DNA of 64,000 nucleotides from Escherichia coli. GTDB lineage: Bacteria > Pseudomonadota > Gammaproteobacteria > Enterobacterales > Enterobacteriaceae. The notes beneath the pieces are model-generated. The model saw only the letters and a list, made by a program, of their open reading frames with translations. It had not been told where the DNA came from and ran no database searches. Location of the stretch: NCBI RefSeq assembly GCF_003334785.1, contig NZ_QOWV01000013.1; one strand, written 5' to 3'. Positions 1,962 through 47,957 of this stretch are shown piece after piece (position 1 is the first letter of the stretch; each line of letters begins with the position of its first letter). The translations under genes were made by a program, and so were the position numbers.

Positions 1962-2945
1962 TTATTTCACCGTACCTAAAATTTCGATTTTCGCTGCTCT
2001 GGCTTTGACTTTACGTGACCAGATAGAGGTAAGAATTGGCACCAGAATCGAAGTCACAATGACCGCCGTCGCTACCAGCGAAGTTGCTGCCGGAGCCATC
2101 GGTTTAAACGCAGGCACCATTTCTGCAATCAGCACAGGTGTCGCTACCGCGGCCCCTGCGGAACTGGAAGCGGCAATTCCGGCAGTGCCATCGCCACCGC
2201 CAATCAATTTATCGGCGATAATCAACGGAATACCGGTCACGATAATTACTGCCACACCCAACAGGATCCCCAGCAAACCAGTCTGGGCAATCACAGTCAA
2301 ATCAATGGTATTGCCCAGCGCGAAGGCAAAGAATGGAATCAGCGTTTGCACCGCTTTGCTGAAAAATTCTCGCAATTCAGGGTCAAGGTTCCCCAGGGCA
2401 AAGCCCACCAGGAACGGTAATACTGCGCCGACGAAAACATGCGGTTCAAACGAGGCAATCCCGGCAGTGCCCAGAATAATCATCGTCATGAGCGGCCCGG
2501 ACTCCAACGACATCAACACAAATGCCCCAGCTTCTTCTTTTGTGCCGTACTGCTGCATGATGGAAGCGTAAAGTCCGCCATTGGTCATATCCATCGCCGC
2601 CACCAGCGCCAGCGTTGAAAGTCCGGCAAAGAATCCAACTTCAACACCATGTTCCGGAATAATACGCGAGGCAATTGCCGCAACCACCCACGCGACGGCA
2701 ATTTTAGTTACCACCAGCGTACCGGATTTACGCAGTACCGTTCCCGTCGCGCTTAATTTTATTGACGCCCCCATGCAAAAAAACCACACCGCCAGAATGG
2801 GCACCGTACCGGTAATCATCCCGTTGGTGAATGATCCAAAATATTTCCCCGCCCCCGGCGAGAAGGTGTGGCACAGTGCGCCAAGGAATAGCGGGACGAG
2901 CATCATCCCCCCCGGGATTTTCTCAATCGAGCGTTTTATCTGCAT
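1962..2945 (-). CDS. kdgT: 2-keto-3-deoxygluconate permease
   Basis: Track ORF 1962..2954; highly hydrophobic polytopic protein; start at [13 protein letters not shown] from recalled 327-aa KdgT. Confidence 0.9.
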
Positions 2946-3064
2946 TTCCATCACCTGTCGGCATATTTTTAAGGGCTGATGCGTAATTCCTCAATGGAGC
3001 ATCAGTGTTGATGGAAACGAAGATAGACATTCATTTAATCAATAAAAGTGATCAAAACCACATC

Positions 3065-3084
3065 AATTGAAACGCTGTTTTATT
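3065..3084. promoter_or_regulatory. Candidate KdgR operator in kdgT promoter region
   Basis: aattgaaacgctgttttatt resembles the TGAAA-N-TGTTT KdgR half-site arrangement, ~120 nt upstream of kdgT start. Confidence 0.35.
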
Positions 3085-3120
3085 TTTATCGGATCATTGT
3101 TTTTATTTTGAAATTGATCA

Positions 3121-3157
3121 CAAAAAAACCACCGCCGTTGGCGATGGTTCATTTTTT
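3121..3157 (-). terminator. Intrinsic terminator downstream of sodA (bidirectional shape)
   Basis: GC-rich hairpin accaccgcc-gtt-ggcgatggt flanked by A-run and T-run. Confidence 0.6.
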
Positions 3158-3204
3158 AAGCTGATATGCGGCCTATACGCCTCATTGCAGCAGGCGGCAA
3201 ATGA

Positions 3205-3825
3205 TTATTTTTTCGCCGCAAAACGTGCCGCTGCTTCGTCCCAGTTCACCACGTTCCAGAACTCTTTAATGTAGTCCGGACGGCGGTTCTGGAATTTCAG
3301 GTAGTAAGCATGTTCCCACACATCCAGGCCCATAATCGGGAAGCCGGAAGCGCCAGAAATAGCTTCACCCATCAGCGGAGAATCCTGGTTAGCAGTAGAA
3401 ACCACCGCCAGTTTATCGCCTTTCAGCACCAGCCATGCCCAGCCGGAACCAAAGCGGGAAGCTGCCGCTTTTTCAAATTCTGCTTTGAAGTTATCAACGG
3501 AGCCGAAGTCACGTTCGATAGCCGCTTTCAGGTCACCCTGCAGGGTGGTGCCTTTTTTCAGACCTTTCCAGAACAGGCTGTGGTTAGCGTGACCGCCAGC
3601 GTTGTTGCGCAGTACGGTTTTCTTGTCTGCTGGCAGCTGGTCCAGTTTGGTGATCAGCTCTTCAACCGGCAGGTTGGCAAATTCTGGCAGGCTTTCCAGC
3701 GCCGCGTTGGCGTTGTTTACGTAGGTCTGATGGTGTTTGGTGTGGTGGATTTCCATGGTCTGCTTATCGAAGTGCGGTTCCAGGGCATCGTAAGCATACG
3801 GCAGGGATGGCAGGGTATAGCTCAT
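3205..3825 (-). CDS. sodA: Manganese superoxide dismutase
   Basis: Track ORF 3205..3831; translation [20 protein letters not shown]...; Fe/Mn-SOD motifs ([14 protein letters not shown]). Confidence 0.95.
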
Positions 3826-9915: not shown

Positions 9916-10140
9916 CTGCCGGATGCGGCGCGAGCGCCTTATCCGGCCTACGGGTCGGCAACAGTTGTAGGCCTGATAAGACGCGACAGCGTCGCATCAG
10001 GCATTGATTGCCGGATGCGGCACAAGTGCCTTATCCGGCCTACAGGTCGGCAATAGTTGTAGGCCTGATAAGACGCGACAGCGTCGCATCAGGCATTGAT
10101 TGCCGGATGCGGCGCGAGCGCCTTATCCGGCCTACGGGTC
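9916..10140. repeat. BIME cluster (tandem REP units) between rhaA and rhaD
   Basis: Three near-identical copies of gccggatgcggcgcgagcgccttatccggcctac alternating with gtaggcctgataagacgcgacagcgtcgcatcaggca. Confidence 0.9.
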
Positions 10141-32678: not shown

Positions 32679-32694
32679 GATGAGGATAAAAGGA

Positions 32695-33936
32695 ATGAAA
32701 TGGTTTAACACCCTAAGCCACAACCGTTGGCTGGAACAGGAAACCGACCGCATCTTTGATTTTGGTAAAAATTCCGTAGTGCCGACTGGTTTTGGCTGGT
32801 TAGGCAATAAAGGGCAAATCAAAGAAGAGATGGGCACCCATCTGTGGATCACCGCTCGTATGTTGCACGTTTATTCCGTTGCTGCGGCGATGGGTCGACC
32901 TGGCGCTTACTCGTTGGTTGATCACGGTATCAAAGCCATGAACGGCGCACTGCGTGATAAAAAATATGGCGGCTGGTATGCCTGCGTGAATGACGAGGGC
33001 GTGGTGGATGCCTCCAAACAGGGCTATCAACACTTCTTTGCTCTGCTGGGTGCCGCCAGCGCCGTCACAACGGGTCACCCGGAAGCGCGCAAGCTGCTCG
33101 ATTACACCATTGAAATTATCGAGAAATATTTCTGGAGCGAAGAAGAGCAGATGTGCCTGGAATCCTGGGACGAAGCCTTCAGCAAAACCGAAGAGTACCG
33201 CGGCGGCAATGCCAATATGCACGCGGTGGAAGCTTTCTTGATTGTTTATGACGTCACTCACGACAAAAAATGGCTGGATCGCGCGATTCGCGTGGCTTCC
33301 GTGATTATCCACGACGTCGCCAGAAATAATCATTATCGCGTTAACGAACACTTCGATACCCAGTGGAATCCGCTGCCGGATTACAACAAAGATAACCCGG
33401 CGCATCGCTTCCGCGCGTTCGGAGGTACACCAGGCCACTGGATCGAATGGGGCCGTTTAATGCTGCACATCCATGCTGCCCTGGAAGCCCGTTGCGAACA
33501 ACCACCAGCATGGCTGCTAGAAGATGCCAAAGGTCTGTTTAACGCCACCGTGCGCGATGCCTGGGCACCCGATGGCGCGGACGGGATTGTTTATACCGTT
33601 GACTGGGAAGGAAAACCGGTGGTCCGCGAACGTGTACGTTGGCCTATCGTCGAAGCAATGGGTACGGCCTACGCGCTCTACACCGTCACTGGCGATCGCC
33701 AGTATGAAACCTGGTATCAAACATGGTGGGAGTACTGCATTAAGTACCTGATGGACTATGAAAATGGTTCCTGGTGGCAGGAGCTGGATGCGGACAATAA
33801 GGTCACCACCAAAGTCTGGGACGGCAAACAGGATATTTATCACCTGCTGCATTGCCTGGTGATCCCGCGTATCCCGTTAGCGCCCGGCATGGCTCCAGCG
33901 GTTGCAGCGGGTCTGCTGGATATTAATGCGAAATAA
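32695..33936 (+). CDS. yihS: Sulfoquinovose isomerase
   Basis: Track ORF 32680..33936; start at [15 protein letters not shown] (413 aa). Confidence 0.88.
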
Positions 33937-33960
33937 CTGATCTGAAAATAGGGTGCGGGT

Positions 33961-34001
33961 TTTCCCCTCTCCCTAACCCTCTCCCCAAAGGGGCGAGGGG
34001 A
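33961..34001. repeat. GC-rich palindromic intergenic element after yihS
   Basis: cccctctccctaaccctctccccaaaggggcgagggg forms an imperfect hairpin; family not assigned. Confidence 0.45.
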
Positions 34002-34049
34002 CCGTCCGGTGCAGTTTTTGGGTTTGACATCAGCCTCACGGGAGGCTGT

Positions 34050-34976
34050 ATGTCGTTAATTAAGGTGCCTTGTATGCAAATCACCAATATGCATTGCAGT
34101 GGACAGACCGTTTCACTTGCCGCGGGGGATTATCACGCGACCATTGTGACCGTCGGTGCTGGTCTGGCTGAATTAACCTTTCAGGGTTGTCATTTAGTCA
34201 TCCCGCACAAACCCGAAGAGATGCCGCTGGCGCATCTGGGTAAAGTGCTTATTCCGTGGCCGAACCGGATCGCCAACGGCTGTTACCGCTATCAGGGGCA
34301 GGAATATCAGTTACCCATTAATGAACATAGTTCAAAAGCCGCTATTCACGGGCTGCTTGCCTGGCGAGACTGGCAAATTAGTGAATTAACCGCCACCAGC
34401 GTTACCCTGACAGCTTTTCTGCCGCCCAGTTACGGCTATCCGTTTATGCTGGCTTCACAAGTTGTTTATTCGCTCAACGCACACACGGGTCTTTCCGTTG
34501 AGATCGCAAGCCAGAATATCGGCACTGTCGCAGCGCCTTATGGCGTGGGTATTCATCCTTATTTAACCTGCAACTTAACATCTGTTGATGAATATCTGTT
34601 CCAGCTTCCGGCAAACCAGGTTTATGCCGTCGATGAGCACGCGAATCCGACAACGCTTCACCACGTTGATGAGCTGGATTTAAATTTCACGCAGGCGAAA
34701 AAAATAGCCGCGACAAAAATCGACCACACCTTTAAAACCGCTAATGATTTGTGGGAAATGACCATTACCCATCCACAGCAGGCGCTTTCGGTAAGCCTTT
34801 GTTCCGATCAACTCTGGGTGCAGGTTTATAGCGGTGAAAAATTACAGCGTCAGGGACTGGCAGTTGAACCTATGAGTTGCCCGCCTAACGCCTTTAATTC
34901 AGGTATCGACTTATTATTACTGGAATCAGGAAAACCGCACCGCCTGTTTTTTAATATTTACGGACAGAGAAAATAA
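34050..34976 (+). CDS. yihR: Aldose-1-epimerase family protein (sulfoquinovose mutarotase)
   Basis: 308-aa ORF. Confidence 0.85.
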   Translation: MSLIKVPCMQITNMHCSGQTVSLAAGDYHATIVTVGAGLAELTFQGCHLVIPHKPEEMPLAHLGKVLIPWPNRIANGCYRYQGQEYQLPINEHSSKAAIHGLLAWRDWQISELTATSVTLTAFLPPSYGYPFMLASQVVYSLNAHTGLSVEIASQNIGTVAAPYGVGIHPYLTCNLTSVDEYLFQLPANQVYAVDEHANPTTLHHVDELDLNFTQAKKIAATKIDHTFKTANDLWEMTITHPQQALSVSLCSDQLWVQVYSGEKLQRQGLAVEPMSCPPNAFNSGIDLLLLESGKPHRLFFNIYGQRK

Positions 34977-35174
34977 CTTGTATTGATTAGCAGTCAAAAT
35001 CATTGAAGAACATTTCACTCGCTAAAGGCAACATTATGTATCTTCAATTTATTAAGTTAAAAACAGCTCAGCTTCTGTAAAGTTTTTATATATCAGTTTT
35101 ATGAGAATCATTTTACATAAGCCTGTAATAACAGGAAGGCAACAATCTCGTTCTCAACTCTATGGAGATTAGTT

Positions 35175-40857: not shown

Positions 40858-40933
<76 letters not shown>

Positions 40934-47895: not shown

Positions 47896-47957
47896 GCCGG
47901 ATGCGACGCAAATGCGTCTTATCCGGCCTACACGGTGATGATGTGGTAGGCCGGAGC
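47896..47957. repeat. REP element downstream of glnA
   Basis: gccggatgcgacgcaaatgcgtcttatccggcctac plus partial unit gtaggccggagc. Confidence 0.8.

Follow-up and report, generated by a model that had tools for sequence, protein, structure and literature searches.

The window analysed here (the whole stretch of DNA, 64,000 nucleotides long) carries a sulfoquinovose (yih) cluster with the + strand order yihU, yihT, yihS, yihR, and yihQ. Locally, it is the reverse complement of MG1655, and a window coordinate and its MG1655 counterpart add up to 4,104,451. The yihS reading frame ends with a TAA stop codon at 33934..33936 (+ strand), as given by the open reading frame list and by the PGAP annotation of an identical record, where the CDS ends at 33936. 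Between this stop codon and yihR lie a BoxC repeat and, adjoining it, a hairpin.

The inner stem of the hairpin, CAGCCTC / GAGGCTG, is a perfect 7-bp stem (34031..34048, + strand) with arms at 34031-34037 and 34042-34048. The first-pass annotation had described this stem correctly, with a loop of three nucleotides (acg); the sequence gives a loop of four, ACGG at 34038-34041. RNAfold extends the stem to 34026-34054 (GACAU-CAGCCUC-ACGG-GAGGCUG-U-AUGUC, + strand), and the full K-12-type stem-loop has 12 bp, a bulged U34049, and the ACGG loop. Its 3′ arm contains GGAGG (34041..34045, + strand), a sequence resembling a Shine-Dalgarno site, and an ATG (34050..34052, + strand) at which the MG1655 annotation starts yihR. 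The earlier observation that GGAGG lies in the 3′ arm 4 nt upstream of this ATG held, and the extension to 12 bp sequesters the ATG as well. A second GC-rich palindrome, previously placed at 33961-34001, is also real, and its positions 33964-33999 are a catalogued repeat, BoxC/PIT/TMECO no. 21.

The hairpin is real and is no chance stem. Its folding energy is -19.1 kcal/mol, against -6.7 ± 2.3 for dinucleotide shuffles (z -5.4; none of the 200 shuffles equalled it). In the window-wide energy scan, 47 of the 63,970 31-nt windows on the + strand of the 64 kb fold equally well, which places it within the best 0.07%. The other loci with comparable folding energy in the window are mainly REP elements and terminator-like hairpins.

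At the sequence level, the motif is confined to the junction between yihS and yihR in the loci that carry it, where no further copies were found. The outer pattern GACAT...ATGTC has a single occurrence in the window, roughly as many as chance would give for so loose a pattern. Searches with Rfam covariance models returned nothing relevant, either for the K-12 region at E ≤ 10 or for six orthologous loci at E ≤ 1. A REP or BIME identity was rejected: the consensus GCCGGATGCGGCG...CGCCTTATCCGGC is absent from the yihS/R hairpin and is present in the window's own REPs, e.g., at 9918, 24402, and 40858.

The adjoining palindrome belongs to a family first named BoxC and later PIT elements (PMC4666352). 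Its core (33964..33999, - strand, CCCTCGCCCCTTTGGGGAGAGGGTTAGGGAGAGGGG, type A mm) is the exact reverse complement of TMECO no. 21, located at MG1655 4,070,452-4,070,487 in Table 1 of Holder et al. 2015 (PMC4666352), and on the - strand it follows the TMECO consensus 5′-CCCTCNCCC N3-6 GGGNGAGGG N3 GGGNGAGGG-3′. By BLAST, other copies match query positions 16-99, and E. coli genomes hold a median of 4 (megablast) to 14 (blastn) copies. BLAST and alignment together define an extended BoxC-family unit at 33955..34038, made of core, linker, and tail (TTTGACATCAGCCTCA), with an approximate left boundary.

We aligned six other copies, from the gabP/gabT, ppc/argE, fimH/gntP, iscR/trmJ, yjbD/rluF, and purK/ybcF regions. 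Five of these six are entirely intergenic, and the sixth overlaps the end of trmJ by 4 nt. The repeat unit runs about 40 nt past the 36-nt core, into a tail with the consensus TTTGTCATCAGCCTGA. Compared with the six copies, the window matches 35-37 of 39 positions in the core and 11-16 of 19 in the tail (34020-34038), and then 0-5 of the next 16 nt. Thus, the homology to the repeat ends at the hairpin loop. From this alignment, the hairpin appears to be a chimera, with a 5′ arm derived from the tail of a BoxC-family repeat and a 3′ arm of local sequence. In our search of the BoxC literature, we found no description of the tail, or of a tail that rebuilds a local hairpin.

Orthologous junctions were collected via protein clusters and the contigs that encode them; a contig scan with YihR gave just six loci. 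An element of the form ACGGCATAT-(variable)-ATATGCCGT was found in 14 lineages, 9-15 nt past the yihS stop codon. The carriers are short-allele E. coli, E. whittamii, Salmonella, Citrobacter sedlakii, C. farmeri, Superficieibacter, the MAG UBA5654, and six metagenomic relatives. Its ancestral form reads ACGGCAUAU-(8-18 nt of variable inner stem and loop)-AUAUGCCGU.

The outer 9-bp stem of this element covaries. All 126 of 126 cells in the alignment of the 14 sequences form standard pairs, and three of the pairs show compensatory double changes (G-C / G.U / A-U; C-G / U-A; and U-A / G-C / C-G). The covariation score is 0.260 vs. 0.155 ± 0.019 in shuffled alignments, with 0 of 500 shuffles reaching the observed value, and sliding the partners by 1-3 columns drops the paired cells to 18-48%. 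RNAalifold independently gives the same outer stem. Nine cells are G.U pairs, which pair on the sense strand only, as the opposite strand would have C.A. This indicates that selection has acted on the structure in the sense (mRNA) strand. Inside the outer stem, sequence and length differ wholly between lineages: with RNAfold, 13 of the 14 have a predicted inner helix of 1-5 bp, and E. whittamii has none. Folding energies range from -10.8 to -19.5 kcal/mol across 15 alleles, i.e., those of the 14 lineages with the ancestral hairpin and that of K-12. A role for CsrA or for any other loop motif was ruled out by the lack of conservation in the loops.

In the 14 BoxC-free lineages, the distance from the stop codon to the stem stays within the 9-15 nt given above, vs. 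9-36 nt from the stem to the yihR start. The narrow spacing on one side and the wide spacing on the other tie the element to the end of yihS, and not to the ribosome-binding site of yihR. The K-12 hairpin lies 88 nt past the yihS stop codon. More distant Enterobacterales, namely Klebsiella huaxiensis, Franconibacter, Kluyvera, Budvicia, and Limnobaculum, have spacers of 3-33 nt without the hairpin, so the element is dispensable for the pathway. Judged by this distribution, the stem-loop is a clade-specific addition of the Escherichia-Salmonella-Citrobacter group. Our search of the yih literature found no mention of a hairpin or terminator in the spacer between yihS and yihR.

Within E. coli, three or more alleles segregate at the yihS/R site. 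The K-12-type spacer is present in 2248 of 5426 complete genomes, and 2247 of these 2248 copies are at least 99% identical. A BoxC-free spacer, about 71 nt shorter, is present in 1667 genomes. All the BoxC-free alleles have a different hairpin at the same place, ACGACATATCAGGCTGCACGCCGGGTATGTCGT, with a folding energy of -18 kcal/mol. One strain, Z1323CEC0013, combines K-12-type flanks with the ancestral hairpin and has no BoxC. In the divergent CS6L allele, BoxC is truncated on its left side; the inner stem is kept and the outer stem is lost (-11.9 kcal/mol).

Taken with the orthologous junctions, these alleles indicate that the hairpin of the window is the form taken in K-12 by a conserved stem-loop at the end of yihS. 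In a K-12-type lineage, a BoxC/PIT/TMECO repeat would have inserted onto the 5′ half of the ancestral hairpin. BoxC with its tail would have replaced the A-tract and the ancestral 5′ arm, and the tail sequence TTTGACATCAGCCTC would now serve as the 5′ arm. The outer 3′ arm, TATGTCG, and all the sequence downstream of it would be ancestral. The inner 3′ arm, GAGGCTG, which makes the stem perfect, would descend from the ancestral CAGGCTG or else have arisen anew as a complement of the tail. GGAGG and the in-frame ATG at 34050 would be by-products of this rebuilding by BoxC, with yihR translated from the AAGGTG/ATG 34074 signals just outside the stem.

Microhomology at the BoxC junction is plausible from the sequences. 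Reverse-complementing the tail heptamer CAGCCTG gives the ancestral arm CAGGCTG, and lineage P0004 itself carries ATCAGCCTG. The motif CAGSCTG is nearly self-complementary, and two alignments of the junction are equally good.

The locus resembles other BoxC/PIT/TMECO loci (Bachellier; Hoyne & Maher; Holder et al. 2015) in that the adjoining palindrome is TMECO no. 21 and in its small intergenic rearrangements. The hairpin is not the BoxC core: its 5′ arm alone is taken from the tail of about 40 nt found beside the core in several copies. Holder et al. describe hotspots of small intergenic change at TMECO loci (PMC4666352), and the yihS/R locus fits this pattern.

We hold the structural and evolutionary account with high confidence and the functional assignment with moderate confidence. 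For the whole account –a conserved boundary stem-loop, rebuilt by BoxC in the K-12-type allele, with yihR starting at ATG 34074– we estimate a probability of roughly 0.55. It assumes that the K-12 hairpin is equivalent to the ancestral element.

A neutral scar would be another explanation for the K-12 form. The ancestral hairpin would be functional, and its K-12 counterpart would be a tolerated remnant of BoxC insertion or rearrangement with no present role, whose stem was possibly perfected by a quasi-palindrome template switch. Where TMECOs are tandem and inverted (palindromic), hairpin-forming sequence often survives small deletions (PMC4666352), and this hotspot behaviour fits the scar, as do the three or more alleles at the site and the strain CS6L, which does without the outer stem. 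Besides, the near-identity of the K-12 allele in 2247 of its 2248 genomes leaves no variation in which selection could be tested. However, the rebuilt stem is no weaker than its ancestral counterparts (-19.1 vs. -10.8 to -19.5 kcal/mol), the distance to the yihR start was nearly kept (18 nt vs. 17-21 nt in Escherichia-like lineages), and a random junction would seldom recreate 12 bp. We consider a neutral scar unlikely.

The first-pass annotation had read the hairpin as one that buries the yihR Shine-Dalgarno sequence, and the outcome depends on which ATG starts yihR. In the MG1655 annotation, b3879 begins at ATG 34050 and encodes 308 aa. In the nine other E. coli records fetched (9 of 9), PGAP places the start at the equivalent of ATG 34074, which gives a protein of 300 aa (34074..34976, + strand, MQITNMHCSGQ...). 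Among 120 cluster representatives, the Escherichia-like N-termini read MQIT.MH or MRLTSMH and nearly all the others MH(S/K)(S/G)G, and the extension of eight residues, MSLIKVPC, is confined to one small cluster of 37 sequences. In K-12-type alleles, ATG 34050 is in frame with the yihR reading frame. The upstream ATG of the O157-type alleles and of E. whittamii is out of frame, at 28 nt from the one at 34074; CS6L has ATA in its place.

The conserved start has its own ribosome-binding site. AAGGTG at 34062..34067 (+ strand, opening energy 3.0 kcal/mol) has AAGG at the same place in Escherichia-like relatives, and E. coli and these relatives conserve AAGG(T)G with a spacing of 6 nt to ATG 34074. 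Opening the mRNA from GGAGG through 12 nt past ATG 34050 would cost 15.8 kcal/mol, compared with 7.0 from AAGGUG through 12 nt past ATG 34074, whose AUG is computed to be 95% unpaired. In all 14 lineages with the ancestral hairpin, yihR is called to start 9-36 nt past the stem, and wherever the Shine-Dalgarno sequence was read, it falls outside the stem. We found no YihR structure in the PDB to fix the N-terminus. On these comparisons, ATG 34050 is very probably not a functional yihR start, with ATG 34074 as the probable working start; most simply, the buried GGAGG and ATG 34050 would be by-products of the stem sequence.

If ATG 34050 and its GGAGG were nevertheless the true start in K-12-type strains, the hairpin would damp or condition YihR translation, in a conditional variant for instance through ribosomes or helicases that open the stem. 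The MG1655 annotation, the strong Shine-Dalgarno sequence 4 nt upstream, the burial of both signals in a stem that is costly to open, and the in-frame position of the ATG all speak for this. The yihS/R hairpin also resembles translational operators and RNA thermometers in having GGAGG and ATG paired within a stable stem. Unlike in those systems, the buried site is not conserved, since GGAGG is limited to the alleles rebuilt by BoxC and is absent from alleles and orthologues without it, and 24 nt further downstream there is a ribosome-binding site that is both conserved and accessible. The PGAP start, the lack of the eight-residue extension in orthologues, and the out-of-frame or ATA codons of other alleles likewise argue against it. 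The conserved start is not sequestered in K-12, and the Shine-Dalgarno sequence is sequestered in no orthologue where it was read. Thus, the burial that had been proposed is there, for a site that is probably unused, and we regard control of yihR translation through it as improbable.

At the functional level, we propose that the stem-loop would act in the sense mRNA as a transcript-boundary element between yihS and yihR. It would shield the yihUTS segment from 3′-to-5′ decay, serve as a leaky intrinsic terminator, or both; yihS mRNA would stay above yihR mRNA, and read-through into yihR...ompL would continue. Both the role as decay barrier or terminator and its retention by the K-12 form are inferred from the analyses described here. 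The first-pass annotation had also suggested that yihR translation could be damped or conditioned relative to yihS. A lower yihR level may still hold, through mRNA and not through occlusion of the Shine-Dalgarno sequence.

Published counts for MG1655 grown on sulfoquinovose (replicates 1/2) are 547/612 reads for yihS, 142/148 for yihR, and 676/699 for yihQ, with 0-7 reads for these three genes on glucose (PMC12608037, Table S3). Per kb, the sulfoquinovose values correspond to about 440-490 reads for yihS, 155 for yihR, and 335 for yihQ (n = 2, low raw counts). The coverage steps down about threefold at the hairpin and then rises again in yihQ, as seen in two replicates with a few hundred raw reads. 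Either a leaky terminator or a barrier protecting the 3′ end, or the two together, would account for a step-down with read-through, and these thin counts do not separate them. The genes from yihR through ompL are induced by sulfoquinovose (PMC12608037). The literature uses the term 'yihUTS operon', and CsqR has a single strong gSELEX binding site, in the yihU/V spacer.

Decay-barrier hairpins within operons are an established mechanism (malE-malF, puf; PMC5927463). As with the malE-malF REP, the puf hairpin, and the protective structures of Dar & Sorek 2018 (PMC5927463), here a stable stem-loop lies between cistrons of one transcription unit. It is a spacer stem-loop downstream of yihS that covaries in the sense RNA, and it shares with decay barriers its conservation across genera and its location downstream of the apparently more abundant cistron (yihS > yihR, in reads per kb from the two low-count replicates). 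Unlike the malE-malF REP, the yihS/R element is single-copy and locus-specific, and its function is deduced from position and covariation only.

The element also has features of a Rho-independent terminator, with its short distance to the stop codon, an A-rich tract before it, and a U-rich tract after it in most lineages. In contrast to intrinsic terminators and attenuators, the U-tract is short and interrupted, with 1-5 U in the 8 nt past the stem across alleles (4 in K-12, almost none in C. sedlakii and lineage P0026). An intrinsic terminator is expected to have at least 5 U in the 8 nt right after a G+C-rich stem, and the K-12 hairpin has fewer. The consensus terminator scan found 0 sites in four species (K-12, E. 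whittamii, Salmonella, and L024), and our search of the Term-seq and terminator literature found nothing specific to yihS and returned no Term-seq or 3′ RACE data from cells grown on sulfoquinovose. Since the downstream genes are still induced by sulfoquinovose, a yihS/R terminator would be leaky at most. Earlier work, as cited in PMC4666352, reported no terminator or promoter activity for PIT/BoxC elements.

At the DNA level, a perfect -35-like hexamer, TTGACA, lies at 34024..34029 (+ strand), produced by a T-to-A change in the BoxC tail relative to the family consensus TTTGTCAT. That this hexamer and the palindrome form part of a sigma-70 promoter or of a protein-binding site driving independent yihR-yihQ transcription is highly improbable: RNA polymerase with sigma-70 does band-shift the K-12 yihS/R spacer in vitro and yihR and yihQ did not follow yihS on lactose (PMC5816610), but there is no acceptable -10 hexamer at 16-18 bp past TTGACA, promoter scans gave 0 sites in K-12 and none in E. 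whittamii, Salmonella, and L024, TTGACA is restricted to alleles with the BoxC tail, the variable arm spacing (8-18 nt) and the sense-only G.U pairs favour RNA over an operator, the strong CsqR site lies elsewhere, in the yihU/V spacer, and sulfoquinovose takes yihR from 0 to about 145 reads. A palindromic operator was ruled out by the arm spacing and the G.U pairs.

Overall, the yihS/R element is most likely an unnamed intercistronic boundary stem-loop, remodelled by a known repeat in K-12-type strains. In Escherichia, Salmonella, and Citrobacter, the sulfoglycolysis operon contains a covarying RNA stem-loop that is not in Rfam. The unit-like behaviour of 'yihUTS', despite the co-induced genes downstream, could be explained concretely by this stem-loop. 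At this site, nature provides a clean case of a presumably functional hairpin remodelled by a BoxC/TMECO repeat, and it could be used to test whether these repeats have any effect on expression. These findings do not overturn current understanding of the locus.

A bolder extension of the boundary stem-loop, which we consider very doubtful, is that the element is a lineage-specific cis-regulatory RNA whose conserved base ACGGCAUAU/AUAUGCCGU is read by a factor such as an RNase or RNA-binding protein, tuning the ratio of YihS to YihR (-TauE-YihQ) in sulfoglycolysis, and that BoxC spreads by microhomology that targets hairpins. If true, this would provide the first mechanistic insertion rule and the first regulatory consequence for BoxC/PIT elements.

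Finally, at the annotation level, the reference start of b3879 (308 aa) is probably eight codons too early, which affects expression constructs and ribosome-binding-site models.

Among the other BoxC-family copies, a strong hairpin directly abuts the repeat tail (…CATCAGyCTGA) in two of six, those at fimH/gntP (L015) and yjbD/rluF (L017), and at the latter a T-run lies 3' of the hairpin. The copies considered also included that at ppc/argE (L014). BoxC-family repeats may be sited preferentially next to hairpins.

Within E. coli, Z1323CEC0013 (L034) and CS6L (L003) carry two rare alleles of the yihS-yihR spacer. In Z1323CEC0013, where the yihS and yihR proteins are K-12-type and the TTAATT spacer is present, we found the ancestral hairpin without BoxC; this allele could be the pre-insertion state, the product of an excision, or a patch recombinant. 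In CS6L, the left side of the BoxC core is truncated and the outer stem of the hairpin is gone. A 2.9-kb contig labeled 'MAG: Bacillota bacterium' (L006, JAEWTL010000022.1) presented 99% protein identity to E. coli in YihR, and its yihS-yihR junction, including BoxC and the K-12-type hairpin, differed by one base over the 261 nt compared. Most likely, this contig derives from E. coli and was mis-binned.

At the conserved yihR start, the real Shine-Dalgarno (AAGGUG) can itself be paired in part by a weak local hairpin, GGUG..UUG....CAA..CACC (34064-34083), with an opening cost of 3.0 kcal/mol. The O157-type allele keeps this pairing incompletely.

Downstream, every hairpin-bearing relative inspected 3' of yihR harbors, between yihR and yihQ, a gene of the TauE/sulfite-exporter family (PF01925) that encodes about 291 aa (2464-3339 in locus L019; likewise in L022 and L024-L030). 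In E. coli K-12 the same interval is only a 198-nt spacer (34977-35174), devoid of any coding remnant. The flanks of tauE in L019 align to this K-12 spacer over 70 nt at 84% identity and 36 nt at 78%.

For yihS, the longest ORF would begin at 32680 and encode 418 aa, while the MG1655 and PGAP annotations both start at 32695 (413 aa), making yihS a second site of the yih cluster where the annotated start differs from that of the longest ORF. Finally, the energy scan of the window detected canonical REP elements (GCCGGATGCGGCG...CGCCTTATCCGGC) at 9918-10132 (a triple array), 24402-24432, 40858-40888, and 47897-47927.
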